64,000 nucleotides of DNA, from the NCBI GenBank assembly GCA_026770705.1, contig JANJGN010000035.1, positions 7,006,001 to 7,070,000 on the forward strand. The letters are read 5' to 3'. This stretch comes from Isurus oxyrinchus. Taxonomy: Eukaryota. Shown piece by piece: positions 9,474-56,511 of this stretch. Each line of letters opens with the position of its first letter. Positions within the stretch are counted from its first letter, which is position 1. A model generated the notes under the pieces. The model had not been told where the DNA came from. It ran no database searches and worked only from the letters and a program-made list of their open reading frames with translations. The position numbers and the translations under genes are program-made.

Positions 9474-11461
9474 ATAATATTAATAATAATAAATAAAAAT
9501 TAACTTTCATGTATCATGCTTCCAGACCACATATTTTTTTTTAATTTAACGATATAAAATTATATTATGATTGAAATCAACTATTTTCCATTTGGTTCAG
9601 TTTGTTCTGTTGTGCTGGGAGTGCGTGAGGTGTGTCTGGGAAGGCAGTAGGTATGCTGATTAATCTATTCTTCTAGGTATAATGATGTCAATCACATACT
9701 GATGGGCAACTTGTTGTGCAACTAGCTGATAGGAATATCAATGCTGGAAGAATCTAAAGAGACAAACCGTGAGAATCTACCTGCCCAACAGAAGCTAGAA
9801 TTGCATGAGCAAGAGCCGAGCAAGTGCGCTCCCGGATGTGCTCTGGGTCACCATGACGGAAGAAAATAAGCAGTGGAAGATTTAACACCACTTTTTTTTC
9901 GAAAGGCCCACCTTATATTGTACAATAAACCAGGTGAAATTTACGTATATCATTAAGAAATCCATGCCTATTTGTTGGGCCATTGTGTGCAAATGTGGCG
10001 ATGGTGTAACATTTCTCATTTTAAAACAATATTTATGTCATCCACTGCATTTCAGGGAGGGTAGCCGTATATTGCTTTGAATACCTAGTGAATGTTTCAA
10101 CCAGACTTTCAACGACGGCTGAATTCACATTCAGTAACAATGCTCCCTTTGCTCTATTGTTAGGCTGCAACAGCCACACTTTCAGTGACCTGTGACGTGT
10201 TAATCAGATTAATTGGTTTATCATTGATACTCTCATAAATGGTCGGAAAAACATTTAGGTTATGCAACGGGTCCAAAAACACATGCTACTGTTGGAATAA
10301 TGCACTGCCAACAGTGCTTATCACAAAAGTATTGATATCCTCTATCTGCGCAACAATGATTGTTCAAGTAACTGTAATATATACCTGCCAGGTTCAAATA
10401 ACAAGATTTAGGGGAAATATATTACCGCTGCTAATCGTATTTGCCCTGTCCATTCACATCCATTAGTTATTTGGAGAACAAACAAGAACGTGTACATTGT
10501 TTGGGAGATCAGGAATGTTTGGTTAGAATTGCTGTCCAGATAAAAAAAAAACATCGACAGAATTAGAACATATAATGCGAGTTTCGTGTTGGCAGGTAAG
10601 CAGTACATATATGGCTATGTAACGTGCTCTTCTGTCTGTTCCTTAAAATACCAGGATACATATGACCAATACTGAAGGTTCTATACTAAGGCTTTGCAAG
10701 AATTGAAGAAAGAAGACTGGTGAATATAGGGATAACTGAATGCTTAAATGAGATGGGAACGATTGAAACGGTCATCAGTTAAAATCCCTATCAGCTTTTA
10801 TGTTTCATTAAGTATTTCAATAGCGTTTTAACAAATTGCCAATGGGTTTGTTGTTGTTTTGTGGCCGCGTTCTTTTCCAATTTCGCCCACACTCTTGTGA
10901 TTGGTGGTAGAGTTGTGGTTTGGAGATTTACATGCCACAGGGGGCTAACATTTCAATGGCTAAAATAAGATGCAAAAATGTCTCAAATGTTTCCCTGCGC
11001 AATCCATAAATTTTGATCTCCTAGTGACTAAATTTAATTCAAGATGACGCACAATAGTTACAATGAAAAACTTGTCATTAGGATAGCAAACTGAGCCCAA
11101 ATCTCACACATAACTGTAAAAACACGAGAACAACAAATAAACAAAAAAGAAGATAACAGGCTTAGACGGGCCTGTGTTAAGAATATTTCGAATAAGTGTC
11201 CAAAAAAATAAGACCAAATAAAATCCGTTGAAATGTGCTGATGCATGGCAAGTCAACATCAATACAGGAAACTGCAAAATGATACAAATGAAGAAAGATT
11301 GCTGTGTGAAAATATAGACGGTCTGTTACATTGATTGTAGTTGCCCCACGAAGAATGGCAAACTTAAGAAGGCATACCTAACCTTCCTCATTTGAAATGT
11401 CGAGACAAAGTACATAAGGAAGAGAAGTGTAGGAAATCTAGTTCAAACATGAATAAAGCCC

Positions 11462-11600
11462 CAGCTAGATGAAGGGCTTTACAGACTCAAAACATCAAGT
11501 GTATCTGTCTCTGCAGATGCTGTCAGACCTGTTGCGTTTTTCCAGGTATTTTTGCTTTTGTTCTGGATTTCCAGAATCTGCTGTATTTTGCTTTATTTCC
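11462..11600 (+). repeat. Penelope-like terminal-repeat fragment
   Basis: gatgaagggctttacagactcaaaacatcaa...cagatgctgtcagacctgttgcgtttttccagg...gatttccagaatctgctgtattttgcttt matches the other Penelope termini in the window. Confidence 0.7.
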
Positions 11601-11849
11601 AGATAGAGATTCTTGGACAATTATGCACAAAACTCTGGGAGGGTGTTAAAGCATTAGACCAGATGCATAAGAAAGCTTCTAAAAATGTAGCAGTGAAGCG
11701 GATTTTGCATTTGCATTGTACTATTAAAAATCTTGAATATTCACATCAGAAGATAAAACATGGAAGCGAGATTGCAGAGGTATATTTGGCGAAATATTTC
11801 ACTGATTGAGCTGGTTTAGAGGGAAGCAAAACACGTATCTGGAGTTAAA

Positions 11850-12068
11850 CGTCTGACGATGACCATAAAACCATTTCCGTTGTCTTAAAAAACGTCAAGT
11901 TCACTAATGTCCTCTAGGGAATTAATCTGTTGCCCTTACATGATCTGACCTATATGTGACTCCAGACACACAGCAATGCATTTTACTCTTTCATGTCTCC
12001 CGAATAAGGTTTGGGAAATACATGTTGACCTCGCCAGAGACGTCCACATACTACGAACGATTAAAAAC
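11850..12068 (+). mobile_element. SINE fragment sharing its 3' tail with the CR1/L2-group LINE
   Basis: gttcactaatgtcc...acctatatgtgactccagac..acagcaatg; reverse-complement homologue at 63530-63775; ends in gccagagacgtccacat...aaaa like the LINE tail. Confidence 0.7.
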
Positions 12069-13927
12069 CACACTAGTTTTAACTAAAAAAGCAATTTTAT
12101 TGCGATTATAAATGGGGCACAGGAGACATGTGGATGGCGGTGGTGTTTGGGGGGGTGTATTGGTGAGGGGTACAAAAAATCAGTTTTTACTAATTGAAAA
12201 TTAAGCCTGATACAGTGCTGAAGGATATCGAAAGTTAACTTTAAAGAGGACAAAGAAAAATACTTGCAGGGGGAAAATGCTATGCTGAAAGAGCAGTTTG
12301 ACAGAAGCCACTTCCAAAGATCATTAACATTTTCAGTAAAAGGTTCGATTGGTTCAATAACATTTATCAATGCTATAATATTCCTTAATAAGGCAGGGTC
12401 ATCAATATCGTTTGTGTTGTTGAGATCATGTAACACTCGTTAAATCTAAAGCTCAAAGATAGCAGGCAGTTGACAAGCCTTCCTCTCCGCATTTTTATCC
12501 ATTAACTGCAGGCAAAGTCTAACCCATGGAGTGACTCATGAAAATTCATACAAAGTTCAGTGGATCTATTGCCATCGCTGTCTGTTAGAGAAAAAAAAAA
12601 ACACCAGCATGAGTTTAATGATTGTGTGAATACAGCCGGCATAATGTAATATTTTGGAGATCAAGTAAAATAATCTGTATGGAACCGGTCGCAAGCGGTA
12701 ATCAAATATCCTCCACCCTGCCTAATAAAGGAAAGTTCATCATCACGTTCTTTGCCCCATTACTTCGGAGAAAGAAAATATTTGGCATTGGCTTTTGGAC
12801 GGATATTACAAATAATACTGATGATGCGGACCACAAGTTCAAATGAAACCCACACCTAAGCAGTGATGGTGAAACAAATAACCTATCCCACCGTAATTTG
12901 TTCGACAACTAGGCTTTGAGCAGGCCAAATTTATTTGACAACTAACAAACGTGGACTGCTCTTACAATTTTCTCATATCTTTTATTTTAAATCGCAATAT
13001 CTGGTCTTTCGATAACATTGCAATGCTTTTGTAAGCAAGGATAATTTTATGCCACCCTTATCAGAGTGTTCAGGAATTTATACCAGTGGAACGATATTTG
13101 ATCCTCCTTATCATTATAGACTTTAGTCGCTATTTTGCAACCCAGCGATGACGCACATCATTCTACCACTCCCTCAAAATGCGCAATAGAGATTGAGCTT
13201 TGCTTTGCTGATCAATTTTCAGGGCATGCTACAGACAACACTTTATTTAGGTGCCATTCTGAATCAGTGCGGAAAATTGACCAGGGAATTAATGGTGAAA
13301 GCAGCAGGAACTTTCCAAAGGTATCCACAAACTTGCGTGCAGGAAATTGCATTTGCTTCTCCCACAATAGTACCACTTACTTTTGATATTTTTCATTGCA
13401 TGTGTACTGATCTAGCAAATGTCCTCTTTTACAACATTGGATAATGCAAATGTGTATTACTTGACAGGACTTCTGCTATGTGATTGTCTGGATTTTGCTT
13501 TTTTAATCTTAAAAAGGCCTAATTGTATAACTGACAGACGAAAAGAACATTCCCTTTTAAAACTCCTACTTAAAATTAACATTTCACCTCCACTTTTGAA
13601 ACAAAGAAAGCAAAAAAAAAAAATGATTATCACAACATACCAGCGCAAAACAGTCATTCTGTTCAATGAAGATTAATATGTACCGGAATGTGCACTATTG
13701 ACCAAATCTATTCTTGGAAAAACTTCCATTATTCTTCGCGTTGTATAATATGCTTCAAACCTGCATTCTATCACTGAATTGTGATCCTAAGATAATAGAA
13801 TGTCCATCTCCTTAAAAAATGGCAAACAAGTTCAAGTTATGTTAAGTGCGCAATTTCATAATTGTATTCAAATGTTCACGCTACAATCGCTGATTTGTAA
13901 AGTTTAAACAACCTTTCAGTTGGGCAT

Positions 13928-14082: not shown

Positions 14083-15529
14083 CTCCTTCTGTTGGACAGT
14101 TTGACGTACCTCCTATAAGTAGTGAACGGCAAGATATGTTTTAAACATCGACCTAATGGATTGAGCTATAAGCGCTCATTAGCTTGGAAATCATTTGCAT
14201 ATTTTGGCATAGCAACATGAATGTCACAGCCCATTGCGCATTTCCAAAATTGGCAGTTACACTCTTAGGAACCTTACTCATCTCGGTCCTTATTTCATCG
14301 ACGGACCCAGAACAACACTCATTCTTGCTTGCATTTTTTCCTCATTACAAAACAGGAACTGATTTTGTAGCTAGCTAATAATTATGTACCTTGTAGTTCT
14401 GCAGTTGCCTTTCTCAAAATTATTATTCAATTTTTTCATCATGTCTATCCATACCATCTAGATTAAATATTTTACATAACTCATTTTTATAATGTAGTCA
14501 CTGAACTATTTCCTGTGCGATGGTCATTACAGAAAAGAAAAACAGTTTTATTTTAAAAAATCCAATCATCTGCCCTTCGTTGTCTACGTTAGGCGTTTAT
14601 TAAAGTAAAGTGTCATTCATTTCTATTACCTTTACATCGTTGACAAGTTGGCTTCATGTGTCTTCCCACCTTGAAATTAGAAATTAGTGTACATTATCGT
14701 GGAGATTCACTGGAATCATCACAAGCACTTGTACTTCACTTTCCTGAACGTTTATTGCAGTATATATGTAGCATATAAAAGGTACAAACGTTCAGCAACC
14801 TGATCAATTCAGGATTAGTCACACATCGTTTTTGTTTTTTGTAACCCAATTAATGGTGCAGCCATTACAGAGAGAAACAGAAACAACAATTTTCCCGCAT
14901 CACTGCATGTCTCACATTCAGATACTGACACATGGCGCTTAAAACCAACCACATGAACATTCTGTCCTAAATAGCTAGCCTCAGCTGTTGGTAACGTCAA
15001 GAACGTCCTAAATTTGCTTCCTGTTAATGGAGTTCATCGTTTAAGTTCACAATAGTCTACATTCCATTCTCAAGTGCTCAGCTGTTGGGTGAACGGTTTA
15101 GGTAACTTATCTGCCCCTCTTACATAGCACTTTGCCGGCAAGCAGATAATTCCAATCTCCGTTGACATATCAACAGCTGGTAAATCTTCATCGTGCCCAT
15201 TCTAAACTACCAAGGTAGATTTTTCCACCACATTTACTAGCCCCTTCCTCAAAAATCCCATGGCCACTTTTCTGAAGGTTTTGGCGTTTATTAGAACCTT
15301 TGGTGTTGCATCCTCAACATACACGTGAGGCATTCCAAGTTAAATAGCACCGCTTACTGGGCTACTGCCACAATATGGGAGAAAGGTCTGATCCATGGTA
15401 GGATCCGTACATTGGGCCTCTATTCCAGAAGTCCTCCCACGAAGTAATAGCATTCCCTGGCTCTCTATTCTGAGTTATGTCCTTGCTGTTCTGTTGCAAT
15501 CTGCTGTAGGCCCTGTGGATCATCTCAGC

Positions 15530-18076: not shown

Positions 18077-18094
18077 AAACCGCCAACCACGCCA
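18077..18094 (-). promoter_or_regulatory. Primer-binding site, tRNA-Ser-like
   Basis: TGGCGTGGTTGGCGG versus the tRNA-Ser 3' complement TGGCGTAGTCGGCAG: 12 of 15 match, and all three mismatches are transitions. Confidence 0.65.
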
Positions 18095-27737: not shown

Positions 27738-28193
27738 GAAAGCACCTTTGCCGTTGTAATGAGTTGAAAAATGAAAGCATCATGTCGGATCACATCACAG
27801 ATTATCCGCAGCATCCACCAGATCACAGACAACACGACACATGTGGAGGAAACGATACAACACCGCAGGATCTTTTTCTCAAAGAAAATTGTAGTGAAGA
27901 AGAGGAGAACATAGAGAATGCATTTTGAGGTTCTGGCAGCCAGAATGGAACAGCAGGAGAAATGGTTAAGTATCGCACCACAGAAAGTGAACAAAACATT
28001 CACACCGGAAGTGAGTCAGAACCCAGTATAATTTCGAAGACTGGACCTGCCACTAACAAAGACCGTCCTGAAGATCTGAGCGGCCCATGCACTGATAGTG
28101 ACACCATCCTCACTAACATCGTGAACGAAGGTCGCATTCCACTGTTTCAAGGAGAAACACCCAATGAAAATGACAGAAGTGCAAGCTCATCAG
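27738..28193 (+). pseudogene. Exon-like polar/acidic low-complexity reading frame with one premature stop
   Basis: ORFs 27728-27928 and 27962-28225 are in the same frame, separated only by TGA 27926-27928. Acceptor cacAG at 27737; 456 nt as a phase 1-1 exon; the donor looks mutated (CTgtga). Not recognisable as a repeat. Confidence 0.5.
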
Positions 28194-28456
28194 CTGTGAT
28201 TGTTACTTTTTCTGAATTCATTTAAGAGTCAGCATTTACACTGAAACTAGCAAGCTAGGTGCCTTAGATTGTTTGTAATACTGTTGTGAATTCCAACTTA
28301 CCTGAGACTGTCTGTGTACATCTATACCAGTGATTTAAATGACCCTTTAAACATTACTTTAGTGTTGATTTTTAACGTGTTTTATCTTTGTGAAATGTAA
28401 CATTCCAGTTCCAATGCTTCTAAAGTTATCATAATACCCCGCTGAATATTATAGAT

Positions 28457-29715
28457 TGTTATGATCACCTCTCAGGTTAACCCTGGGCAAGCTTGATCCC
28501 AGTTGGAACCCAGGTGATAGGTCCTAAATTTAGGTGATGGATGGCATCTACGGAAATGAGCCATAGAGGCGGCTAATCAACTTTCAGCAAAATGATAACA
28601 CATTTATTAAAATAAAAATTATGAGTTCTCTTTCAGTATTCCTTCTTCCAAAAGCATACCTTTACTGATGTACACAGATTTAAATGATAACACAAGTTAG
28701 AAAATAATAACCTTATGATCTAATATGCATACTAAGTACACATTGAAACTAACAATAGGCACCCTGTTGTCAGACACACCACACGCTGAAACAAAGGGAG
28801 AGATGCCATCGCAACCGGATGCTATGGATCATTCGTCATTTCCTCAATGACGATTCGCACACTTTGAGTTAACTGGAGTCTCACTGTACTCCGTCTTTCA
28901 GAAGAGGGATTCCAATCTTCGCTCTTGAAGAACTCACTTTGGAAGCTTCTCCTAAACCAACAGCTTCTGACAGATGCCTGCAGCAAGGGTGCTCTACCAG
29001 GACATTGGACCCCACTTGTCATGTCCCTTTCCTCGGGGTCACCACATGGATTCAAGCAGTATTCAACACACCCTTTCTCACCGTCAGAGGCATCAAGGAC
29101 ACAACTGCTTCATATCTCTATTGTAAGGTGTTACTGACTTTTTAAAGTCTCTTTGGACATCGTTGCCTATTGCAATCTCTTTTCACTTTAATTCTGCTTT
29201 CTGCACATTTCATCTCCGTACATTAACTGTGAAACTTATCCTCTGCCCTTAATATTATCTGCAATTAAACATAAATTGTCACTCTTCCTTTGGAATCAGA
29301 AAGCGTGCTTGTGCCTTTTCCCATTTTCACACCTTTCAATTTGAATTTTTGTCTTTAGTTCCAGATTCGTTATATATCCCCTTTGCTTCAGTATCCCTAG
29401 GCAGCTACATTCAATATCATTGAAGCGAATAGCTTCCAAAAATCAATCTGTTGTTTCTAGCTGTTCTACATGTGAGAGGCACATGATTCTCTGGACTCCT
29501 CTTGCCAGCCAGTGGTCCAATTCTTCAACTCGTGTTGGCTTATTTCATCTACAACAGTTATTACAACGTAATTAGAACTGCAAGTACCTTTTGAAAGACA
29601 AGCTAAAACTCTGTCTGACCTTCCTTAACAGGCAGGTGAATAAATATTAACCAAATTAAACACACTCCTAATGACAATGCAGTACATATATAACTTAAAT
29701 AAACAATTTCTATTG
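28457..29715 (-). repeat. 3' LTR of the Gypsy element (far end approximate)
   Basis: + strand starts TGTTATGATC; shares tgatcccag..tggaaccca, caataggcaccctgt and aggcaggt blocks with 35082-36357. Confidence 0.75.
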
Positions 29716-32086
29716 ACTAAGACCATACCGTTCGGAAAAAAAGACAAGTTCACAACAACATACGTTTCTTTTCAATAACTTTACATCCGCCTGATGCAAA
29801 CTCTTGAACATAACATTCCATGAATAGTGCAATTACAAAAATTTACATAGAGAAAGTTAATAAATGCAAAAACATTAGCTGAATTTGCAGATAATTGTCA
29901 TATCATACCTCAACATTTAGTTTCATTTTGCTCTAACTTTCATTATGTAAAGCACCAAGGAATGTTTCATTTAACTCAATGTTTCAACCTTTTTTTATTC
30001 TCTCTGTAGGTATAATTCAACCCTGAGGATCATTTTCCAAACCCAAGTCTGATATATTATTTTTCTCTTTAGCAAAAGAAGAATGGCCTTTATGTGCATT
30101 TACATCTCATCTCTTCTTTTGGCAAAACCTATTTTTTTAGTTTCAACGATATTATTGTGATGCTTTTCTGCGCATACAAAACTGTTCCATATTCCTGCTT
30201 GGTTTCATCATTGAATTTTATCTGACATTGTTGTTTCTTTACGTCCCATTTTGAACAGGTTTTCTTCACATTTTTGTGCAAGGTCAATTATCTTCTACGT
30301 GTGGAGTGTCATAATTCGTTCAAATCCTTTACTTCCATTGCATAATCCACAAATTATATAATCCCGCTCTTTTTCAGGATTTGGATGGTGTTTTGCAAAT
30401 TGCCCACTTTTTTTGAATTCCAACTGCTATATTTTGTGCGTTAGCAATGGCAATCAGTTGTAAAACAATGTCTCAGTTCATTGACTTGGTGTAGCCATTT
30501 CTGAATTTTATTACTTTCTGTTTGATATTCTTGATTTCAAATCTGCATGCTTTTTAGTTGTGTTCATGTTGTCCATGACTGAGATAACGTTCTCAGTAAT
30601 TTTATTTAGATCAGTTATTAGCTCAGGTGGACCACAATTTAGCAGAGAGGTTTTATTCACAAGAACGACCTTCGAACTTTGAAACTAGATGCCACACATG
30701 TTATTAAACATTTGCTAGATTGCTTTGCGGTTCAAACATGTTATTGCCCTTTCCAAAACGAAGTTGGGATAATTGTTATTTTTTTTTTAATATGCATCCA
30801 AAAAATTATTCTCATTTACCAGCAAATCATTTTCCTCTTGAAATCATTTTGCATGTTATTTTGTTCTAACATTGGATACTTGAAGTTCGTTCGTTTTTTA
30901 CTGGTGTTTGAACATTCCTCCAACTAATTTAACACTTAGAAATTTCAAGCCATCAATCACGTCTTCTACATTCTGTGACTGCTTCTCAAATGATCTCTTC
31001 TGTTCTCTTCTTTCGTTAGCAAACTCCAATTTCATACATGGCAGTTGATTTTCTATGTTTAGTCGTTTTATCTTCAATTGCTTGCAATCATTTTTGCCCA
31101 CAATAATTTTGTGATTATGGCTAAGGTTAGCATGATGAAACACCTGATGCAACATAATCACTGCCAAAGTACTGTGTCCACCAGCAAAATCATTTCCGAG
31201 AATAAAATGCATTCATTCCTGGGGTGAGGTAGCAGCAATTCCGAACGTCACAACTGAAATACAAAGTGGCTTTACAATTTAAATTTACACAAAGGAACAG
31301 ATTCATATATTCCATTAATAAAGTTTCATAATTTTTTTCCATTCATATTCGACGTGAAACATGAATTGTATCATCAGCTCAGTTCAATGATTGATCTGCC
31401 CCTGCATCGCCGAAACATTAATTTGTTAGCTTACTTTGTTGGAGGCGTGAGGGACCACTTCTCCCTTGACACCAGCATCCCAAATCTCTAATACTCTTGA
31501 GTTTCCTTCCCAGCAGTGAAAGAATAATTCTCTGAACTATCCTAAATCATGTTCCGCTTTCCTTTATTTTCTGCATGAACACAATTTACCACTACTAACA
31601 AACATTTAACAAACTTTTCTTTTTCTGACCCATCCTTTCTGATGATTCCTAACGCTATCCTGCTACTGCAACATGTCAACTACGTAATCTCGAGCAATCT
31701 GTCCTAACTTGCCCCACCTGTTGGAATGAAAATACTTATACGTCTGAAAGTCACTGCGACCCTGATACCTTGCTTTCTAAGAAATGGCCCCGGAATTCCA
31801 AACTGCCCCTTCTCTTATCTCGCTACTTGCTGACTTTTAAACCTCCCACCTTAAATCCTTCCCGGGTGTTTGGGAATGTCAGAAAAAAGGGTTTAGAATT
31901 CTGGACCAGTTCATAGACGTCAGCCACCTTTGTTGCCTGGGTAGCTGATTTCACCTTCTAGTCTTCAACAAGGGGTCGAACGAAACGAGGAAGTGAGCCT
32001 ATACATTCTTCCAATATTTTATGTCACAAAGAACTCCATACATCTTCCAAATATTTAAAGTCCTGATACAGCAATCAAAATAACTT

Positions 32087-32949
32087 CCACTGCATTTGTT
32101 GCTCCCAACGTGGTCTCCACTACATTGTAGAGACTAACGTAAACTGGGCGACCACTTTGCAGAGCACCTGCGGTCTGTCCGCAAGAATAACCCAAACGTC
32201 CCTGTCGCTGGCCATTTTAGCACTCCACCCTGCTCTCTTGCCCACATGTCTGTCATTGGCTTCCTGCATTTTTTCCAGTGAAGCCCAACGCAAACTGGAG
32301 GAACAACACATCATCTTCCGACTAGGCACTTTACAGCCATCCAGACTGAATATTGAATTCAACAACTTTAGGTCTTGAGCTCCCTCCTCCATCCCCACAC
32401 CCTTTCTCTTTCCCCCTTCATTTTGTATTTTTTTTCAATAAATTACATAGATTTTTTCTTTTCCCACCTATTTCCATTATTTTTAAATATTTTTAAATCT
32501 TTTATGCTCCCCCCACCCCCAGTAGAGCTATACCTTGAATACCCTAACATCCATTTTTAATTAGCACAATCGTTTAGATAATATCACCAACTTTACCTAT
32601 GTGTTCTTTTGTTCTATTGTGAGTGACTTTTTTGATGATCTGCTTCTATCACTGCTTGTTTGTCCCTACATCCACACNNNNNNNNNNNNNNNNNNNNNNN
32701 NNNNNNNNNNNNNNNNNNNNNNNNNNNNNNNNNNNNNNNNNNNNNNNNNNNNNNNNNNNNNNNNNNNNNNNNNNNNNNNNNNNNNNNNNNNNNNNNNNNN
32801 NNNNNNNNNNGCTTATATTGTAACTCTATCTTGGACTCACTCAATTTCTGTCGAAGGTTCATGAGGACATGAAACGTCAACACTTTTGTTCTCCGCCGAT
32901 GCTGCCAGACCAGCTGAGTTTTTCCAGGTAATTCTGTTTTTGTTTTGTG
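32087..32949 (+). mobile_element. Penelope-like element (GIY-YIG domain plus terminal repeat) inserted into Gypsy gag, 13-bp TSD
   Basis: HCICCSQRGLHYIVET.RKLGDHFAEHLRSV...SSEAQRKLEEQHIIFRLGTLQPSRLNIEFNNF; ATCAAAATAACTT occurs at both 32074-32086 and 32950-32962. Confidence 0.92.
32678..32810. other. Assembly gap (133 N)
   Basis: Run of N inside the Penelope 3' region. Confidence 1.
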
Positions 32950-33243
32950 ATCAAAATAACTTTGCCTGTTCCCCTCAAAGACAATGTGTTTCTACCCAGG
33001 TTCTTTCCTTATGTTGTGAAACTTCTGCCAGAATGCTTCAAGGTCTAACTCATATGCATTCATCACAGCCATTTTCAGTGCATTATAATCCACCTACTGC
33101 TCATCTGAAAATTAAGCATAAACCTCGTGTGCTCTATAAGAGTAATGTCACGATTTATTCTGGCTTCTTAGTTTGCCTGGCTACCTTCTCAATCGAAATA
33201 AATAATGCCATGTAATCCCTTTCAACAAACTTTACGAGAGCTT

Positions 33244-34297
33244 AGAAATATTGAAACAGATGAAGCAGGAGCAGGAGTAGGCAATTTGGACCTTCGAGTC
33301 TGCTACGCCATTCTATAATATCATGGCTGATCCTCCATTGCAACGCCATGTTTCCAGTTTCTCCCAATTCTCTTGCTGCCTACAAACATCTCAAATAATG
33401 TACTTTCTATTGAATGTACTCAGTGAGCCCCCGGCCTGCACAGCCTTCTGCGGCACAAAATTTGAAAGGCTTTCCACTGACTAAGTGAAGACATTTGTCC
33501 TCACCTCAGTACTAAATGGCATTCACGATATTCTGTGACTGTGGTCCCTGGTTCTAGACTGCCAGACAGAGGAAACATCATCCCTGCATCCAGTCTTTCT
33601 AAAATCCAGTCTATTGGAGTTTAATACATTTCAATCAGGTCCCTTCTAAATTTTATGAACCCGACTGAATAGAGGTCCGGTCGAACCAATCTCTCCTTTA
33701 TGACAGCACTGCCATCCCGACATCAGCTTAATGAAAATTCTTTGCATTACCTCTATAGCAAGCGCATCCTTTCTTCTTCAGAAAGTCCAAAAGTGCATGC
33801 AATACTCCAGGTGTGGTCGCACTAATGCACTGTATAATGGGAGCAAAACATTTGTTTGCCTTTCCAATTGCTTGCCTCACCTGCCTGTTTTCTTCCATTG
33901 ACTGGTGCACGAGGACACCCATATCATTTTGAAGAACCACATTTCCCAATATATCACCACTTAACCAATATTCAGCCTTTCTGTTTTGTCACACGAAGCG
34001 TCTAACTTCAGATTTATCTACGTTGTACTGCATTTCCCAGGTGTTTGTCCACGGACCCCCTCAAGGCACCTTGTATCGTTCTCAGAACTCACAACCCCGC
34101 CCAGTTTTGTGTCGGCAGCAAACTTGAAAATATTACATTTCGCTCCCTCCAATTCTCATCCCTTGCCAAAATATTTCCCCCTTTAATAAAATCCAGTAGC
34201 GTCTGATGTGCGACATTGACAAAAGCCTTCTTGAAATCTAAATGCACAAAATCTAGTGGAACTCCCATACCGATTATACTATTTGCACCCTCAAACC
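33244..34297 (-). mobile_element. CR1 LINE 3' fragment inserted into Gypsy gag
   Basis: Tail gcaggagcaggagtaggcaatttggaccttcgagtctgctacgccattc; IFKFAADTKLGG at about 34095-34135; AGCTT flanks both sides (33239-33243 and 34298-34302). Confidence 0.88.
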
Positions 34298-35062
34298 AGC
34301 TTGCACAACCTTAAGCAACTCACGAAGAAGTTTCTGGTTGCAGATTTTTTCATCATCAGAGGTTGCCTCAGAATCTGAGAAGTTTTGTTCAGGTCCAGCT
34401 TTTTAAGCTGATATTGACTTTGCCATTGCTTCTTGCTTTCCTGCATTGCTAACTTCCCTGTCTGGACGTCGAGGCTTTGCATTTCCTATTTTGTTAGAAA
34501 TACTTTCTCTTTTTCCTTTTCCTTTTCCTTTAGCCTCTTGCCTTTCCAATTTCAATTATTTTTATTTTAATTTTGCCTCTAGTTCATTTTTTTTCTGTTT
34601 CCTTGCTTGAGCAAGATAACGCGTATTCATTTGCAACTGACACTTTAATTATCTCCCGATATGACATGCCCCCCTTCCCCGGGAAACGTGGTCTCCCTAC
34701 TATCCCTTCCAGTTTATAGTGCTGTGCGATTATTTTAACTAAGTCCACTTTCATTGCACGTTCACGTCATTCTAACTCCAATTTATCAATAAATCCCATT
34801 ACCTCGCCCATGGTTAATGTCTGAAAACCAGTCAGAGTTACATCCTTCTACTGAAAAGAAAGCTTCCACAACTTCCAAGATGCATAATATACCTCACAAC
34901 CACTCCAATTCCTATGTCTAGTAGTTGATTACAGCCATGACCCAGCATCATAAGCACTGAAAGTTCACACAGACGTTCAAGAATCTCTAGTAACGAGTGA
35001 TAATTTTAATCCTAACATATTTATTAAATCTCGTCAATTACATGCCGGCCTCTTTTCAAATA

Positions 35063-35078
35063 TCTGTTGAGCCCCCCA
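35063..35078 (-). promoter_or_regulatory. Primer-binding site, tRNA-Pro-like (degenerate)
   Basis: TGGGGGGCTCAACAGA versus canonical TGGGGGCTCGTCCGGGAT, located 3 nt from the LTR end. Confidence 0.65.
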
Positions 35079-35081
35079 CTT

Positions 35082-36357
35082 TCTAACGATCGCAGCTGAG
35101 ATTACGGCTGGACCAGCCTGATCCCAGAATGGAACCCAAATTCATAAATCATAAATTGCAATGTAGCTACTGAACAGAGTCAAAGGAGGCAGCTCATTAA
35201 AGTTTAACAAAAGGCTAAATCATACATTAAAATAGTAAATATTAGCTACATTACAATTTTCCTTCACGGACAACTATACCTTTCCAGAAATATACCGATT
35301 TGTAAGTGTAACACAAATATCAAAGGCTATCTAACACTAGAATTTCCACAGTGGCTCACAGTACATGATCCAATAGGCACCCTGTGTTCAGACGCAGATA
35401 CCAGTTGACAGATGCCACTTCAGCCATCTGCTTTGGTTCTCTCATCAATTCCTCCCAGACGCTTGCTACACCATGAGCCCAGTTACCTCACTACACTTCA
35501 TCTAATACACAAGGGATTCCAATGTACATTGTTGAACAATTCTCTTTGGAATCATCTCGTGAACTGATACTTTCTAAAACACCATCTGCAAGTGTTCACG
35601 TCCAGCATTTTGAATTCTCCTTCCGATGTTCATTACCTCTGGTTCACAACATGTTTTATAATTGTCCTCCACGCACAAGCAGTCGTTGTCTCAGCCACAA
35701 ACATTCCCACTGCTTCATCTATCAATACCCAAAAGTTACAGGCCTTCCAAAGTCGAATTCAATATTAACTCTTGTAAGCTGCTCTCGATTTAAACCTGAT
35801 TTTTGAAGCTTTTGTTTCTTTCAATCTGAATCCCAGGGCCCTTCTCCCTACCCCTCACTCTTAAATTCCCTTAAAATGATCTTATTTCCTGGTTGCTGTC
35901 TTTCTTTTTGACTAGAAGACATATTTGTAGCTTCCGCTTCTTCCACTCCCCTGGATTTTGGGGCATCGTCTTTAGCTTGGATCTGGTATTCTGCTCATTT
36001 TACTCCAGTATCTGCCAGTATCACTTTCAAAACAAACTGATCTGAAACTACTTTCAAAATCAAACTGCTTTTTCCAGCTTTTCCGTGTGCCTTTGGGTGG
36101 GGCCTGCTTCCCTGGACACCTGCTGTAAAGCAACAACCCTCTTCTTCCGCTTTTGCTTGTTAACTATAGCTGCAATAGTCGTAGAAAACTCATTAGAAAA
36201 ACAGGCATCTTTGTAAAGTGAAACTGATGTTCAATTTGACATTTCTTAAAAGGCAGGTACTGAAATTCTAATCAAACTAAAACATCAAAGCTAAACCTCA
36301 TTCCTTACATCCCAAAACTTGAAAGATAACATACTTAAGCTGTCTCTTTTTCTGAAT
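35082..36357 (-). repeat. 5' LTR of the Gypsy element (far end approximate)
   Basis: Collinear similarity to 28457-29715; on the minus strand it is followed by TGGGGGGCTCAAC. Confidence 0.75.
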
Positions 36358-37329
36358 AATTGCACATTTTATTTGTTACAGTGATATAACGTATGATATA
36401 TTTTTAAACAAAACTACTTAGTGAATATCGTTATGGAGGCAGGATAACATGCATAACATCAAACAAAATTACACTTCCAACAATTGATTTATGTCAGCTG
36501 TTGGCTAGCTGCTTCTCCATTAGCACTAGAGTATCTGTGCTTGACATTATTGTGCCTCCAGCTCTAAAAATGTTTAACTCTTGCTTTTTTATGCACATAA
36601 TTACTGTCGTAGAATAAAGGGACGCCGGATAATATGCATAATCAGTTAAATGTCCAACTCATTAGATTAGTTCAGAAGCCATTCGCATTCAATGCAATCT
36701 CAGTAAATATAGAGATTGTATTTTTTCTTGGTTTCCACATGTGATAAACGGGCTGACTTCTATAGTGCATGTAAATTCACGTGGTAAGTTGTCAATGTCA
36801 CTTCCTACAATCAGATATGGCAGCAACTGAGGCCCACGCATGTCTTCTGCAGCTTGCAAATATTCAATCTCTGCTGGGCAGTGTAAGCAATGAGCAAATA
36901 CTTTCAGGGAAATACGTATCAAAACGAGATTTTGTAAATCCATGGCTGGACATATCTGGAAATTGCTTGTGCAATTTTTTTGCTCTTTTTCTTAATAAAC
37001 ATATAAACAATCATGATTGGGAAGAAGGAAACGACGCTATCAGTGATGAATTTATACTGAAAATGAAACTACCGTTTGCTAACCATCTCTAAGTTTACGA
37101 TGTTGTGAAGGTTTTTAAAGACTATATGTAGAGGGGAAGTCTCCTTTTGTAGAAGAGGCTGATTGTTAATGCCAAACATAATTAAAATGCGCCAATCAGG
37201 AGAAATGTCTTAACTGGAAAATTGGACATCATGAAGAACTTTGTTCGACCACTGAAAGTTAAGGCAAATAGCTTCGATGCATTTCAAAGTAAGCAGCTTA
37301 AAGGGAACTTATAACACTGCACATAAACT

Positions 37330-42450: not shown

Positions 42451-45394
42451 GTTTACAATGTAGGAAATGGAAACCAATGTTACGTCAGTATTTTCGGCTA
42501 AACATGCCGCGTTTTAGTATCTATATGAACGGCCAGGGCGAATTAATGAGCTAGGAAAGGCCTTGCTGATTAAGGATACATCATTTGAGCAGTATTGTTG
42601 GATTTGTTGATCTGCAAGCAAGCTGCAAAGATCTATTGCTCAGCATGGGAAGTAATTTGGTAAGCTATCTGAAGCAATGCATAGCCTCCCCCCTCCCAAT
42701 CCCATCCGCCACCCACCCAGCTGCACAATCTCCCACTCTCTGCAGAAATGAAGTGATAAAATGTACAAGTGCAAGAAATAGACAAACATATGGGAAAGGC
42801 AGAGTGCATTTTAATGGAACAGTTATCGTTCATGTTGAGATGGTTCCACACGAATCACAATGTTATTGACTTTATTATGTTTGTCCAAGGCCCTTGCCCT
42901 GCACCAAAATGTTGCTTAACTTGTTCACTGCAGTCCATTTTCTGGCATTTCAGCGGTTTGGTTTTTGTCGTTATTTTATTTTCTAACATCGCCCACCCCC
43001 ATATATCTCTGTCCCTGTATATTTTTGTTCATCTTTCAGATTGCACAGCATTTTGCTTTATACAAATTTAAACAGGGTTACGTAACTTTGAAATAACTAC
43101 TAATATTTCAATGAAAGGACGTCAATTCATTTTGCTTTTAACTAATTCCTGTGGATGTACGGAATCCATTTCACCAGAAGAGAACAGTGCAATGAATTCC
43201 ACTCCTCAAATGTTCAGCAGCAATATTTCTGGGATCAATAGTACTTCACAGAATAGATTGCTGGAAAAAAATGTTAAATTGAGATATTGTCATGTAACAA
43301 ATTACATCTGGCGGCCTAGAGAAATATGACGGACCCTAATGATGGAGCAACTACAATTGGTGGCAAAATACTTGAATTTAAGATGGAGAATAAGTTCGAA
43401 ATTTCTTTCCACCTATTTACGATCTAATCACTTCTGTTTTTACACACCACTTGTTTCCTTTAGTTTATTATTAAAGCCTACCTCTTTAACTAAAATTTTA
43501 AGGATTTCCTTACTCATTATTAATGCCTTTGCCCCAGTGTGTCCGTGTGCATGTGGTTGTGCCTGTGCATGCATCTGCCTCTGCATGTCTGTGAGTCTAG
43601 CCAAGTTACAGCAATCATACGAATGCGAATATTTGGCAAGGCATTATTGTTTTTATTAATAATAATAATAATAATAAAATGTATTTATCGGTGTGTGTTA
43701 AAGTTATTTATCCTCTCCACATTCTGCAATGCATCACATGCACTATATGAAATTGTGATTTTGGTTTAACCTATTCCATTCATTCATTAGCTTGGGATTG
43801 GAAATGTATTCATTAGTTTCCAAGTTTAGGAATATAAAGTTTTAAACTCTGTACTGTGCTACTAGCTGTGGGGTTTCCAGTTAAGACTAATTTGAGTGCT
43901 TTCGGCTTCACTTTATTGCAATTTGAAGCTCTTGTATCTTACTTCGTTCTAGGAAAATGTCTCAGGACCATGGGTTTGTGTGTGAATCTGCGTGGGGCCG
44001 GTGGTGGCTGATGGTTGCTGGGATTGGGATAAAAGTGAAAGAAAGACAGAGTTTGTTCTAAATATTTCCTTTTCTGTTAATATATCCATGCTGCTAATTT
44101 TTCTCTTGAAGCAGACATTTGACAACTACGTTTAATTAATTACAATTGTCTTGTAATTGCACTGAATCAAACCCGAACTAATTGCTGATTAGGTTTCGAG
44201 GCGTATGTTTCCATATTCATGTTTCCTGCAGCTACATTAACAGTTTTTTGTCTTCAATACTTGGCTCACCTGCAAACATTTGTTAGGCCTGTTGCAAGCT
44301 CAATGTTGTGCAGCATTCTACTTGTTGACAACGTCCACCGTTGTACCATGTATACATGTGGAACCGAGGCGCATTAAATTGTTGCCCCTTTCTTATTTTT
44401 TTGAATCTTCATTGGCATCTACAATTCCTTTTGCAAAATCTCCTCATTTATCTATAAAGCGCTTTTCACAGAGCTGTGCCCTGGCTGTTAGCTATGGTGC
44501 ATTCGTTCTTATACTCCAGACTTGGGATAGAGACATTAATTCCGCTGGTCGAACTTTGTTACAATTGTCTTCCACTATTTTTTTTCTTCCTTACTTCAAG
44601 CATCATAGAAATGTTTAAAGGCACAGACAATTCATTTTACTGATACACTAAAAAAACGACATCACCTATTCATGGTAACTGCCCAATGCAAGTGAGCAAG
44701 TGCTGTGGGAAATCCTACAACTAAAATCAATGGTAATGAGACCCAGTTCAGTTTATTCATTGTTACGCAGTTAGCAGGGTGTTTTATTTTCCTTTGGTTA
44801 ATTCCTTGGCAGGACATTCAGAGGCTGATATGTCACAAATATTGCCAAAAGATATGGATATCCAGTTGTGTTCAATAAGAGGCAGATACCCTCAAGCTGT
44901 GAAAAGAGTCTTGTGCAGAATTGACGAGGAGTATTTACTCGTTTCTTGAGGCAAACGTGTTGACCGGTGATGTTCAACAGATATGCTACGTCAATTGTGC
45001 AATCATATAGTGGGAAGTGAGTCATTTTATCGATTGTTTTTATTTCCATCGAGATTCAATGCAAATGCTGTAAACACAAGGCTTTATACCAGTGGTCATA
45101 TTTCAATCCTGCCTCTCAAATCCTGTGAAGTGCATTTCCAGCTCTTCTGTCTGACAAGTTAAGTTATAATGTAATTTCCAGTACCGCTTTATATACTAAG
45201 AAAAAAGAGTTCCACGTTTAATCATTAGCTTACATGTTTTGCCACGACAGTGTCCTTGGCCGAACTGCTGTTAGCTAATTTATCAGTGACGTATATTAAA
45301 GCGACAGAAATAATGCCGATCGTTGATTCTTACACAATGTTCTGCTCAGTTGAAATAAGAAATCAGCTTCTGTTCTTTCCACGTGAGGCAGCAC

Positions 45395-45560: not shown

Positions 45561-48179
45561 AGAACTCTGACAATTCATGGCCAGCCGCCTTCCAGTTGAG
45601 GTAATTATATTCACTCCACTTCTGTCGAGGGTTTTTGGGAGCGGTGGAGGCAGTGGGGGCGTGCGTTGAGTTGGGCATGAAACTGGTTCATTCAAGATTG
45701 TAAAATTTAAAAAAAATTTCAATGAATCAAGTGGCTCTATTTCAGGGATTACAAATAACATTCCATGACACCTCGAAATGAATATTTAAATAAAATTACA
45801 CTGGGAAAAGTATCATGTGCTGGCATGCATATGTTTTGCTAACTTCCTTTCTATTTTAATTGAAGAATGTCGGTGACTTAAAAATGCAAAGTTGCAGTTT
45901 CCTCAAGGAAGAATGCCATTGACTGAAAAAAGATAATTTGCAATTTCCTCAAGGCCAATATTTCCTCCTCAATGATCATTCGAATCAGCGGACAATTCCA
46001 AAAAAACAAGCTAATTGCATTGACCTCTGTGTTCAGCAGAATTTCAACAACCAACTACTAATTAAAATATCATTTTCTCTATACTCGTGTTTCAACGCTG
46101 TTACCGCTCCTGTTTCTAACTAAGACGTTCTTAATTTCCAGCCAAACACAATGAGTGTTAACTCATCTATCACCAGCGCACAGCTCATTAATCCAGAAGG
46201 ATATGCCCGTACTGGCTGCAATTGGGACATTTCCTTGGATAACTTTCTTCAGTAGCTTACATTCTCTCAAGGCAGAACGACGGACAGTTCCACTTCCTTT
46301 AAAAGAAAATTCCAGAATTCTCTGAGTGACGACAATATTCCTGTTTTCCAATACTTCCTGCACATATAAAACAAATATGTAATACTCAAAATAATGAGCT
46401 GGTTCATTGAACGCCCAGATTATTTCATTGAATGCCTCAAAATATCTTGCAAATACATTTCTAGCTAAGTGAGTTACATAAGGCCAGGATTGAGCGTTAG
46501 AATGTATTGTCGCAATATATTAACAGAGTGATGCATTACAAAGAAAACAAAATAGAATAGCTGTCATTAAAACTTCAATCGCACAACTGGAAGCCAGGAA
46601 AGATATGAGGAATTGTTTATGAAAATATCTTAGATTGCAGGGGATGAGGCTGCAACAGAATTATTATTTTTCAATTTATATTGTGTTTAGTGTTTTAGAA
46701 AATGAAGTAACTGGCAAGAAGGAAACAGCTGTCTGATTGCAAAATGCAGCAATATCATTAAAAAAATTCATTCAGTTTTTACTGTGGAAAACATGATTTC
46801 AACGCAAGTGTGGAAGAGATGGAAATCTATCAGAAATATGCTCATGAAATCAAAACAATGTTTTGTTTGATCAATAACCGCAATGTTGGCCTTCTGGATA
46901 AATTCAAACACCCAGTGATTAACCAACAGAACCAAACGCAACGCTTCAAGGGAGAAACAATATTTACTCGATGCATAGGAAATTAAACAATAACTCCACT
47001 GCTAACGTAATACTCTAGGTAATAACCACCCATACAACAATTCCATTTTTTTTTTCATTTTTACCTCCCTCCAATTAATCTTTTTACATTAGGGAACTTT
47101 GGACGTTTATTCAAAACTTTATAGACCAAACACAAATAAGGCCAGATTTTTCCGCCGGAAATATCTTTGATTTCTGATCAGTTTCATTCAATCCTGGAAG
47201 GTATCATTTCGTAGTGGACCTTCCATCACGTTTTTACAAAAATAATCGCCAGTGTCTCATTAAAACCCCCTACAATTGGATAACAATTCAAACTTTGCCG
47301 TCACTACTTTACTGTATTGTGGGTTGGAAATCAAAACCACTCCAAGTTCCAAATGTCCCCTATTCTCATCGTATTAGAACTCTTATCCAGCATCCAGTAC
47401 ATGTCATTTCCCGGCCTTCTCAAATCTGAATCCTCAAACTGAGTGTTGGCTAAAAACTGCCTGCTTTCTGTAAGAATCGGACAGAAAAAAAAATAGTAAA
47501 AGGAAGCCATGTAAAAAACACCTGAAGTCGCCTCAAGGTCAACGTGATATACATATATATATATCTATATATATTGACCTGCAAACAAAACTATCAAATA
47601 ATTACTTTGAGTTGCTACATAACCATTTCATTCTTTGACGTCTATGAATGTTTTCTATGTCTAACGCAGATAATGGGTCTTCTTTTAAGATTTCATTCTT
47701 CCACCATGGAACCCCCTTCTTTAAAATGTGTTTTCACATTTATGTTCATCTGAAGAGTTACATGAATCATTCCTTTCACTTTCTGAAATATATATTTACC
47801 TTCTGAACATATCAGAAATTTCTGAGAAAATTTTGCACTGCTTAAGGTGTCTGAATTGCAAATCTGACCACTTTGTTTTTCTTTTGTAAAGACGTAACTT
47901 TGGATTCATAACTAGTCCAGGCTAGAGTCGCATTTATATTAATGTTGCTGTGAAGTTTCTTAGCCGTTTTTTTCTATATTAGTTCTACATTTATCTAAAT
48001 TTAATAAGTCAAATTAAAAACAAAAAAAGCAGATTTTACATCGCAAAAAGTGGGAGTATGAATACAGGCTCGCAGCTGACATAAAAACGGAATCACAGGT
48101 GTCCTAAAGTAATATACATGGTAAACTGTTGGCAAGAAGGAAGAGTGGGGGTTATTAGGGACGAAAACCTGGGTTTATG

Positions 48180-52599: not shown

Positions 52600-53070
52600 T
52601 ATATTCCTTGGTGTTCAGAAAAAATGAAAGGTGCCACAAGAATCAGAGGTGATCGCATTGATGCAAACATCATTCTGAGGAATCTTGTCAAGATAAACAC
52701 TGAGAGGATGTTTCACTTTTGGCGGTCATCTACCATTGGAGAGCTGAACTTCGAAATATGTGTTCATGTTTATTGAGACTGGAGAGTATTCGTTCTCCCA
52801 GAGATTTGCTGATATTTGAAATTCATTCCGGACAGCAGTGGGGGCTCCCTCATTTATGGCATTAAAAGTTAATTTAAAAGAAGTTTGATAAAAAATGGCG
52901 CAAAAATGTTTTTCTTATTAGTGGAGAGAGAAGCGCAGCTGAGAATGTAGCGGTAGGTAATATGATATTTAGTACAAACTCGTCAGCCATTATTATAATG
53001 AAATATGGGGCAGGCTCGAGGTGTGGGGCTGCGGGTCATCTCATATCACTTACTTTCTCATGTTTTAATA
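52600..53070 (+). mobile_element. CR1 3' fragment
   Basis: RIRGDRIDANIILRNLVKINTERMF (RGDLIE.YKI motif) followed by tcagccattattataatgaaatatggggcaggctcgagg. Confidence 0.8.
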
Positions 53071-53719
53071 GTATTATGTTCAGTCCCATCACAAAACACC
53101 CACCAATGTCCCACACCGCCGCTCCACCTTTCTGGACTTGAAGGATACTGATGTTGAATAGGGAGTCCTTGACAGAATCTGGGAACCCGTGTCCTTCTCT
53201 ACCCTAACATGACTGTTACCCCTTTACCTATCAGGAAAATTAAATTTCCAATATCATTCTCCAAAAGTGTTTAATATTATTGTAATTTTCTTGCGAATTG
53301 GACTCTACATGTCTTTCCTGCTATCTGCTTGTCTGCAGACTAGTTAAAACATGAATGACACACCTCTTTATTTTTCTCATTTAATTTCAGCCATTTCTCC
53401 TTATCCCTAAAACATGTGGGACTTGGGCTCATTCTAGAAGTGGCATGTTCTCCTCCATCAAATCAGTAACAGTAGCTCTCTCTTTTTTTGCTGCACATCT
53501 TTCGTGAACACCTTTTATCAAGGGCTTTTGTGTTACAAGGCTTGATTTTTTCAGCTAGGTGTGCGTCAATGCTACCATTTCAATGTTCTACCATGCACTT
53601 TAAATTGACTCTTGACCTCATTGCATTCCCTCTTAAATCGAAGTACTTAATAGCAAAGCATTTCTTATTCTCTTGCGATCTGACTCTCCCAATTCTTTGT
53701 GCAACAATTCCCTACTTTC

Positions 53720-56511
53720 ACTTTGATATTATGTCACGTCAATTTGACTAAAAACCTCTCAAATAAGATTGTGAAACCGTCAAAAACACGTTTCTGATGA
53801 ATTCCGAACAGGAATTGATAATTCTTCAGAACTTGAGTCATGGCATTTCTATTCATTTACCTCCAAAGGTAAAAGGGAAACATAGCTTTTTTTTTCCCAT
53901 GCAAAACCGATTTTGTACTAAAATTCGATCACTATGATTGCAATACACTTTAATTAGAAAATCAGATTTTTTGCTGAAAATTACCACCTAATTCATACTT
54001 CCTGATGGTTTTCAATAAGGTGATGCAAAAGAGAACTCAACAAGAACGAACAATGCCGAAAACATTTTCTAAGCTGTTGAATCCCAACTCCAATCTGAGA
54101 GAGACATTGTCTGCAATACCGACCAGACAGACGGAGTTAGAAAATGATCTGAAAGGTAAGCGTTATACAAATCTTACTTTCAGTCAGAATAAAATGAACA
54201 ACAAATGATAATTTCTGCGAATTGTCGTCAGTAGCTGAGTGTAAAATTTTGAATTGGACGGAATAGGAACTGGCAGAATCACAATTTCCGAATTTTGAAG
54301 CACGGAAACGGTCACCCTACATTTAGCGCTAATGTATCAGAATATGGAACCTACAACATAACAGTGACAGAAGAAATACAGCTGTTTTTATTTTTGCTTT
54401 TCTACATATCCCAGTATACATTAGGTTTGCGAACTCCATAAACATAACCTGACAAAGTCACAATTTCTAACGTAGGCATTATTAAATATTTTGCCAACGT
54501 GCTATTTAACCGCTGTAGCTTCAATAAATGTACATACATGCTACTTCGTTTGTGTTGGCATGTATATTTGAAGTCGGCAATGTGAGCAGGGCCAATTAAG
54601 GTTTTTTGGGCATTCGGTCCGTGAAAATGTAATTGGGAGGTAAAGCAGATCATGTACGCAGCTCTGTCTCTGTCTCTTTCTCTTTCTCTCTCTCTATGTT
54701 TCCCTTTCTCTCTCTCTCTCTTTATCTCTGCCTCTCTCTCCCCCTCTCCATCTCTTCCACTTTCTCTTTGGACAACGCAGATCAGTAAAATCAACGTTTT
54801 CTGCATTTAAATAAAGACAACAATGACATTGTTGGTTCGTTCATATTCTAGAGATAGAGCAAAAATACAAAGACAAATTCGAGCAACAGGTTATGAAGGT
54901 ACCTATCAGCACAACCGAATATTTGAGGTTTCAGCTCTGGATGACAAATTCGTTGAAGTGAAGGCAGTTTCTTTGGGTCTTGACCAATGGCTGGTAGACA
55001 ATGAACTGAAGGCTCGAGGTAGAGGAGATGAAGTTTGGCAGAGAAACAGTGGACAAAATTAATTTGAAGAATTTAACATTGATGACCTAGTGAAACACAG
55101 TTTTGATAACACAGGAAAAACGCATACCACCTTGGTACTTGGGGGCGCACGGATTGGGAAAAAAAAAAACATGATACAGAAAATATTGCATGATTGGTCC
55201 AGAGAGAAACTATGCAACATTTTAAATTTATCTTCTCTTTTACTGTTCAACAATTGAATTCATTAAGTGGTAAAATAAGCTTAAAAACTCTGATCCTGGA
55301 TTCATATCCAGATTTAGAAGATAAGTTGGAACATCTTTGGACATAACCTGAGGATATATTGTTTATACCTGATGATATAGACCAACTTCACCAAGTCATA
55401 GATTTTGCCTTTGATCAGAGAAAGTACGATCCTAAATACCAATCTTTGAGTCCCAGGTGCAGTAGTGAATTTTCAGATATTGTGCGCTGTCTCATACTTG
55501 GATACTTGCTCAATGCCTGCTCAGTGCTAATCACAAGCAAACATTGGAAGCTGGACTCTGTGCAACAGGTGAATATAAATCTAACCGTGGAAATCGGGGG
55601 TTTCACACACGGCAAAATATGGCAATTTGTTCGCATTTATTTTGGAAATGAAAGCCTTGCATCAGATATAATTGAGCACCTTGAGCAGAATGAGGCATTG
55701 TACACCATGTGCTTTAATCCACTATTCTGCTCAGTCGTTTGTGCATTATTAGTCTCACACTTCAAATATCGAAAGGGGAAAGAAACAATATTTGTCACCA
55801 GTGTGTAAGTTTTCTCAACTTTTATCTCAAGCCTCCGAGATAAATACGGCCGTGACACTGTAAGAAATTGTGACATGCTGCTGAAGTTGGGCGATTTGGC
55901 CTTCAAGGGCATTTGCAGAAAAAAAAACTTTGTGTTTAATCGTGATGATTTCCAGCACCGCGGATTGGAATTTTCCAATTCGCACTCTGCTTTTATGATG
56001 TAGGTCCCAGACAAAACTCAAGCCATCTACAAGTTGACACAGCCTGTTTTGCAGGACTTCGTTGCTGCCCTTGCAAAAATACCAAATACAGCAGGAAAGG
56101 ATGTGACACGATCACTAACTGAATTTCACACAAATGCTGACGACAGATTTAAGTTATTTTCAAGATTTCTTGTTGGGCTCTCCTCATGAAACTTAACGGG
56201 ACAGAGCCAAAAATTAATGGGTACAGTTCCTTCTGAATCGTCCTTGCGTGTTTCTGATTGGCTCAAAACAAATGTGCAAAGATGTGCTCAGAGCTTAGAG
56301 GATGGCCAGTCGCAAAAGACTTTCTTACAACTGTTAGATTTATTTCATGAATTTAGGGACTTGGAACTTATGGCAGCTTCATTAATGCCGTTAAAGAAAA
56401 TTATTCTCACAAAATGTCATCTTAAAACGTACGATTGCACTGTACTTTCAAGCATGTTAGCTGCTGTTGAAGTAATGGAGGAGCTGTATCTGGATCGTTG
56501 TGGTGTGCAAG
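53720..56511 (+). pseudogene. NLR (NACHT-LRR, NLRP3-like elasmobranch family) pseudogene: two N-terminal-domain exons plus the FISNA/NACHT exon
   Basis: Donor AAG|GTAAAA after 53868; exon 53958-54155 (AG|AAAATC...CTGAAAG|GTAAG); phase-compatible acceptor TTCTAG|AG at 54852 gives LK|EIEQKYKDK. Motifs: LVDNELKARGR, Walker A GGARIGK..MIQKILHDW, Walker B LFIPDDIDQL, CSVLITSK, LYTMCFNPLFC, LQDFVAALA, RFLVGLS, first LRR DCTVLSSML..ELYLDRC. Stops at 55060, 55344, 55806, 56001 and 56187, plus frameshifts. Start coordinate approximate. Confidence 0.93.
54662..54768. repeat. (TC)n-rich microsatellite in the NLR intron
   Basis: Imperfect TCTCTC tract about 85 nt upstream of the NACHT exon acceptor. Confidence 0.9.

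Follow-up and report, generated by a model that had tools for sequence, protein, structure and literature searches.

A decayed NLR pseudogene with a two-exon CARD in Isurus oxyrinchus and a candidate three-CARD NLR beside it

The locus

The stretch of DNA considered here (the window) comprises 64,000 nucleotides of the 4.98-Gb genome of Isurus oxyrinchus, positions 7,006,001-7,070,000 of contig JANJGN010000035.1 (C35). It holds one decayed NLR pseudogene, which is part of a large shark NLR cluster. Taken by itself this is an ordinary pseudogene, and its main interest lies beside the window, in a candidate three-CARD neighbour (paralogue C) and in a cryptic CARD of the family. A fragment of the NACHT exon of the window gave 91 matches in the genome, many of them on C35. 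The closest named proteins are NLRs of sharks and rays, which places the gene in an elasmobranch NLR cluster. The features are listed in Table 1; positions on the contig carry the prefix C35, and all others are those of the window.

Table 1. Positions of the features in the window and on contig C35
Feature	Position	Strand	Basis or remark
NACHT-WH-HD2-first-LRR exon, pseudogenised	54852..56564	+	Pfam NACHT, protein alignment, paralogue frame
CARD exon A (first half), decayed	44813..44980	+	nhmmer E 3.8e-11, paralogue alignment
CARD exon B (second half), frameshifted, AG and GT kept	53958..54155	+	nhmmer E 2.8e-19, z 7.9
Two LRR exons, beyond the window	C35:7,072,509-7,073,054	+ (NACHT strand)	about 10 kb downstream of the NACHT exon
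Probable low-complexity linker exon	27738..28193	+	DNA homologue upstream of paralogue A
Segment bounded by AG/GT, with two homologues upstream of paralogue A	13190..13320	+	DNA homology
Old repeat remnant, two related blocks of about 1.3 kb	28434..36369	-	recurs upstream of paralogues A, B, G and H, in the same place and orientation
Paralogue C, candidate live three-CARD NLR	C35:6,729,464-6,804,113	+	about 270 kb from the window

The NACHT exon starts directly after an AG at 54,852. A fragment of it matches Pfam NACHT (E 4.8e-5), and it can be aligned with the Chiloscyllium protein P0002 (43% over 433 residues), which contains NACHT, NOD2_WH, and HD2 domains. The main frame is interrupted by four stops at 55,344, 55,806, 56,001, and 56,187, and the 5' part carries one further stop and frame changes. 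An intact reading frame is absent, since the NACHT exon and the two CARD exons alike carry stops and frameshifts. The end of the NACHT exon at 56,564 is deduced from the paralogue frame, and position 56,511, given as the end by an earlier model-made annotation of the window (the original prediction), is an internal GT. Its basic proposal, an NLR fossil with a NACHT exon, is borne out by the alignment to P0002 and the Pfam match, by the stops and frameshifts, by the LRR exons, and by one CARD. A repeat is inserted at 58,239-62,404, in the NACHT-LRR intron, and is about 70% identical to copies in the neighbouring DNA.

One CARD encoded by two exons

The N-terminal domain of a ray NLR, used as a query, is found in the shark genome as two exons, each of which corresponds to half of the query. 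Exon A encodes about 51 residues and exon B about 60. A structure model based on an alignment of 13 such domains (A+B) has a pLDDT of 87, and its best structural match is a CARD (Z 11.8, root-mean-square deviation 2.1 over 96 residues). The matches ranked 1-35 are CARDs or CARD-bearing apoptosome chains, except for a single de novo design and an entry without a title. With Foldseek, CARDs stand at the top of the list, yet none at E <= 0.001. Pfam CARD is found in 4 of the 13 family members (best E 1.4e-6), and when PDB sequences were searched with the alignment of these domains, only weak CARD matches came up (RAIDD, E 0.24). Because each exon covers half of the domain and the model has the CARD fold, A and B together form one CARD. 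Judged by this predicted structure, the N-terminal domain of the family is a CARD that mostly falls below the Pfam cut-off.

Profiles for nhmmer were built from 14 A and 14 B exons of paralogues, with the window excluded. When each exon was left out in turn, 27/28 were recovered at 44 bits or more, and the best match in ten reversed or shuffled control sequences had E > 1. Each profile has a single match in the window, at 44,793-45,011 for exon A (37.6 bits) and at 53,936-54,171 for exon B (64.1 bits), in the right order and on the right strand, and the rest of the window stays at or below 4.2 bits. Exon A contains frameshifts and stops and no longer forms a clean in-phase exon, and it aligns end to end with C35:7,380,761 (pairwise z 7.7). 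Its end at 44,980 was set by the paralogue alignment, and the donor position now reads AT. Exon B corresponds to the last 198 nt of the island 53720-54155, with its acceptor before 53,958; it is also detected by a protein hidden Markov model (E 8e-5) and aligns with C35:6,933,881 and 6,733,051.

The two exons thus match those of the family, as an N-terminal CARD of the NLRC-type architecture should, and the DNA profiles found one A and one B exon rather than the sets for two or more CARDs. Since there is only one match of each kind, the proposed pairs 43340 plus 44813 and 46419 plus 46699, together with the long exon 53720, reduce to one CARD. The two halves of this CARD had been split between two different domains in the original prediction.

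Two further candidates were rejected. A CARD-B-like match on the minus strand at about 4,090-4,176 (E 0.013) aligns with LINE-like sequence, presumably the ORF2 of a CR1-type LINE, and vanishes with the DNA profile. A weak CARD-A match at 49,534 (E 0.3), in a repeat-rich stretch, also vanishes with the DNA profile.

The upstream islands

Eleven non-repeat islands, named here by their first position, had been proposed as exons upstream of NACHT. Eight of them start after AG and five end before GT, and both signals are found at the proposed ends in four (10655, 13190, 41894, and 44813). In islands 10655, 44813, 46419, 46699, and 53720, none of the three frames is free of stops. That nearly all such islands carry splice-bounded frames on the plus strand is what chance would give: in the 34,448 unmasked bases, AG..GT segments that contain an open frame number 48 on the plus strand vs 44 on the minus strand, and 151-codon stretches interrupted by no more than one stop are found 24 times across the six frames.

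For each island, 1.2 Mb of neighbouring and paralogous DNA was used for comparison. Seven islands (10655, 13515, 36815, 41894, 43340, 46419, and 46699) have no homologue in this DNA, and their z values against the CARD exons are at most 2.1. Searches of the shark's own genome with 53600-54250, 36700-37250, 12950-13520, and 46250-47000, and with two frames, of 72 amino acids (aa) at 41,812 and of 91 aa at 36,817, matched only the window itself or short repeat pieces; repeats dominated the results of two longer DNA queries, with 40/227 and 40/4249 candidates scored. A sequence-atlas search with two islands gave no usable match, and among the annotated proteins compared none matches islands other than the CARD and NACHT ones. 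Most likely the remaining islands are stretches of introns or of old repeats whose ends resemble splice sites by chance.

For two of the upstream islands there are homologues, at 58-63% identity, which lie upstream of paralogue A in unchanged order. These lie at C35:6,600,813 and 6,619,079 for island 13190 and at C35:6,594,738 for island 27738. Island 27738 has one stop in 151 codons, lacks a donor, and shows no codon-position signal. In its homologue a frame of about 110 codons is still open and ends at a canonical GT donor in register, and this homologue is only weakly similar to the N-termini of the bamboo-shark and zebra-shark orthologues of A (p 0.05-0.15 at best). From these alignments, 27738-28193 is a probable linker exon that may have belonged to the same transcript. 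The copies of 13190 upstream of paralogue A carry stops, and identity by codon position is 0.60/0.55/0.42 (42-43 sites each). The segment in the window scores z 0 against the CARD exons; it is not a death fold, and its status as an exon is uncertain.

PYD and death domain (DD) were looked for at several levels. None of 31 read-through frames of the 11 islands matches a death-fold family in Pfam, and Pfam likewise finds neither PYD nor DD in 33 long relatives. Genome-wide searches gave 4 PYD and 30 DD matches, none of them in the window, where local PYD and DD profiles (protein and DNA) remain at control level. At 36,815-37,130 the DD profile, whose power is moderate, has no match, and the region scores below controls. 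A PYD exon is present elsewhere in the same NLR-rich contig, at C35:4,725,004-4,725,207.

Duplication and history of the gene

Paralogue A lies on the minus strand and has an intact NACHT at C35:6,559,168. The window is colinear with it from 13 kb to the NACHT exon, in blocks at 13,034-13,479, 14,090-14,427, 24,446-25,002, 27,745-28,311, and 28,434-36,369. The last block is the repeat remnant of Table 1, which is likely a Gypsy-type retroelement, to judge by gag- and protease-like motifs. Because it occupies the same place upstream of four paralogues, it marks the duplicated unit. The 1.3-kb block common to five genes was also considered as a conserved exon, and this was dropped for want of a codon-position signal and in view of many one-base gaps.

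A FastTree tree was computed from 70 NACHT sequences, comprising the 55 best protein matches (>=330 columns), genomic copies (>250 columns), and amphibian and reptile rows where matched. In this tree the window groups with Chiloscyllium chiPu_0013730 (0.99) and paralogue A with chiPu_0013731 (1.00). Since the two group with different Chiloscyllium genes, the duplication is old, and it is likely, from the tree, to predate the split from bamboo sharks. An old tandem duplication in a birth-and-death NLR cluster, followed by decay, would be the likely course of events.

Exon phases suggest how CARD number could change in such a cluster. Exon A and the NACHT exon both start in phase 1, which is also the phase in which exon B ends; the CARD pair is therefore a symmetric cassette that can be duplicated or lost. 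Gain and loss of this cassette would explain paralogues with zero to three CARDs. CARD-like exons are also seen on the far side of paralogue A, downstream of its LRR exons on the minus strand (C35:6,543,049, 6,523,889, and 6,518,367), and they match the C-terminal CARD-like end of Chiloscyllium P0008.

Alternative readings of the ancestral gene

Very probably, the window contains one dead NLR gene with a single two-exon CARD, a NACHT exon, and two LRR exons, probably preceded by a linker exon, and the rest is intron and repeat. The proposal that the islands are exons of one receptor thus survives for 44813 and the last part of 53720, as CARD halves, and probably for 27738, and is not supported for seven islands. 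Several observations weigh against this account. Exon A is not significant in protein-level searches and is found only with the DNA profile. No intact orthologue of the window gene was found (the best is 45%), and the ancestral exon set is not directly seen. Decay is strong, and a shorter or more divergent exon could escape detection. In one frameshift-aware scan against CARD-B, island 41894 scored 10.3, with a maximum of 8.8 in six controls; that scan also gave 13.8 for a LINE-like stretch. Power for PYD is low, as the four shark PYD exons gave leave-one-out scores of 8.7-28.8 bits even when intact, and that for DD is moderate (3.5-65 bits). The negative PYD and DD results are therefore absence of evidence and do not exclude these domains.

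An ancestor with two or more CARDs, in which 41,8xx-42,022 or 46,699-46,860 would be CARD-B exons decayed beyond recognition, would fit paralogues C, F, G, and H, each of which has two or three CARD exon sets. Besides the score of 41894 just mentioned, the sequence at 46693 weakly matches the start of exon B (E 3.9), and both follow AG. We nevertheless consider such an ancestor unlikely, because 41894 and 46699 fall to the z values of the other islands and vanish with the more sensitive subfamily profile, no partner exon A precedes 41894, no second A lies between 46,860 and 53,958, and genome and atlas searches with these islands gave nothing. Still less credit is due to the mixed receptor of the original prediction, which read PYD-like, CARD-like repeats, linker, DD, two CARD-like domains, and NACHT-LRR. 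Islands with AG or GT ends and helical-looking translations speak for it, as does the PYD exon elsewhere on the contig. It is highly improbable in view of the Pfam, genome-wide, and local searches for PYD and DD described above, and its CARD part is already largely refuted. A single detectable death fold, a CARD, is left of that architecture; of the islands said to encode death-fold peptides, 44813 and 53720 do so, and the others match no CARD, PYD, or DD profile, with the low power for PYD noted above. No intact model with homologues of these exons in that order was found.

A different question is where the gene began. The sequence left of about 36.4 kb, with 13190 and 27738, could be a separate upstream unit or non-coding, with coding starting downstream of the old repeat. 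All CARD exons in paralogues B, G, and H are downstream of the repeat remnant, and in paralogue B an exon with an ATG lies about 1.4 kb downstream of it and encodes a signal-peptide-like stretch. Conservation of 13190 and 27738 is also no higher than that of the repeat (58-60%). On the other side, the homologue of 27738 in paralogue A has retained its open frame together with a canonical donor, and there is a weak alignment between the end of this homologue and the N-termini of A's orthologues directly ahead of their NACHT. A start downstream of the repeat is possible, and we lean towards the single gene with a probable linker exon in front.

Relatives with several CARDs or a predicted membrane anchor

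Paralogue C has six CARD exons, at C35:6,729,464, 6,733,051, 6,763,216, 6,779,291, 6,795,474, and 6,797,159, that form three A-B pairs, all of them stop-free, with AG/GT ends and compatible phases. They are followed by a 617-codon open NACHT frame and then by LRR exons. The CARD pairs are spread over 70 kb, and all these exons would belong to one gene. Four RNA runs of the same species gave only short pieces on part of paralogue C, with no joints, and no RNA was listed for 53,000-57,300 of the window; neither result has a bearing on expression. The model of its Cetorhinus orthologue (P0072, 77%) starts inside the last CARD exon. With three CARDs, paralogue C would have one more than NOD2.

Several other paralogues, namely F (7.40 Mb), G (7.65 Mb), and H (8.66 Mb), contain two or more CARD exon sets that are partly broken. 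In paralogue H, a second, decayed CARD exon pair (C35:8,708,784 and 8,695,704) is found upstream of the pair at 8,678,055 and 8,666,148. Among RefSeq models, Mustelus XP_078087540.1 combines a predicted membrane helix with three CARD units and NACHT, and two CARD units are present in Rhinoraja XP_078286262.1, Pristis XP_051865185.1, and Hemitrygon XP_072894424.1. A membrane helix is predicted in Scyliorhinus as well. The suggestion that an intact paralogue with several death folds might exist is thus supported by the three-CARD frames of paralogue C and by the Mustelus model, and not for a mixed set with PYD and DD.

A hydrophobic N-terminal segment occurs in 12/27 models of the subfamily vs 0/19 in the other clade, counts that are not independent, as they include related rows and isoforms. 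In the tree, paralogue B and the Mustelus membrane-helix model group together. Upstream of the CARD exons of this paralogue, on the minus strand at C35:8,855,950, there is an exon that has an ATG and encodes a hydrophobic stretch resembling a signal peptide; the NACHT of paralogue B is intact. A membrane-helix profile, itself weak, has no match on the plus strand of the window (best 3.4 bits). The best match of this profile (E 0.008) is a transmembrane-like exon on the plus strand at C35:8,773,790, 2 kb before a broken NACHT exon.

It is quite possible, and we put it forward tentatively, that the fossil in the window is part of a subfamily of shark and ray NLRs that gains and loses a two-exon, Pfam-cryptic CARD cassette, with paralogue C a live three-CARD NACHT-LRR receptor and adaptor-free filament nucleator and some relatives anchored in the membrane. 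No paper on tandem-CARD or membrane-anchored shark NLRs was found in a search that covered literature other than subscription papers and bioRxiv supplements.

Known systems and implications

NOD1, NOD2, and NLRC4 have the architecture CARD-NACHT-LRR, the order seen in the window gene, and the family CARD model matches the CARD structures of NOD1 and NLRC4 with Z of about 10.5-10.9. Unlike these proteins, the window NACHT is matched best by shark models of NLRP3/12-like type, the LRR region is short, with two small exons found, and the family CARD is split over two exons and has an extra N-terminal helical segment. By analogy, the ancestor would have been a NOD-type switch, in which NACHT exchanges nucleotide and oligomerises, and the clustered CARD may have recruited a CARD-bearing adaptor or caspase, as is known from the family.

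The closest known relative by the tree is Chiloscyllium punctatum chiPu_0013730 (GCC35247.1, P0120), a partial hypothetical NLR that is sister to the window NACHT and 44.7% identical to it. The model begins inside NACHT and is open where the window copy is broken, and paralogue A groups with the gene next to it by locus tag. The Mustelus asterias protein XP_078087540.1 (P0090) belongs to the same subfamily (38% to the window NACHT) and has the same CARD unit before NACHT. Its three CARD units are near-identical and are combined with the predicted helix at the N-terminus, whereas the window has one CARD. It is named 'NACHT, LRR and PYD domains-containing protein 3-like', yet it has no PYD.

The accessible part of a whale shark study describes an expansion of NLRP-related NLRs, a family close to the NLRPs that is expanded in chondrichthyans (PMC8455134), and gives no architecture for their N-terminal domains; the relatives of the window gene bear NLRP3/12-like names. 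A 2026 preprint, in its accessible part, reports no CARD-containing NLR among 98 C. milii NLRs and considers the canonical inflammasome to be missing (10.64898/2026.07.03.736391). Three Callorhinchus milii models bear the family CARD below the Pfam cut-off (P0077, E 0.034; P0079, no match; P0083, Dark_CARD, E 0.058), and these models bear on that claim as far as the accessible text states it. If the family CARDs recruit caspase-1 or RIPK2, cartilaginous fish would have many CARD-NLR sensors. Among these sensors there would then be some with three CARDs or with an anchor in the membrane, and a concrete gene with which to test this would be paralogue C.

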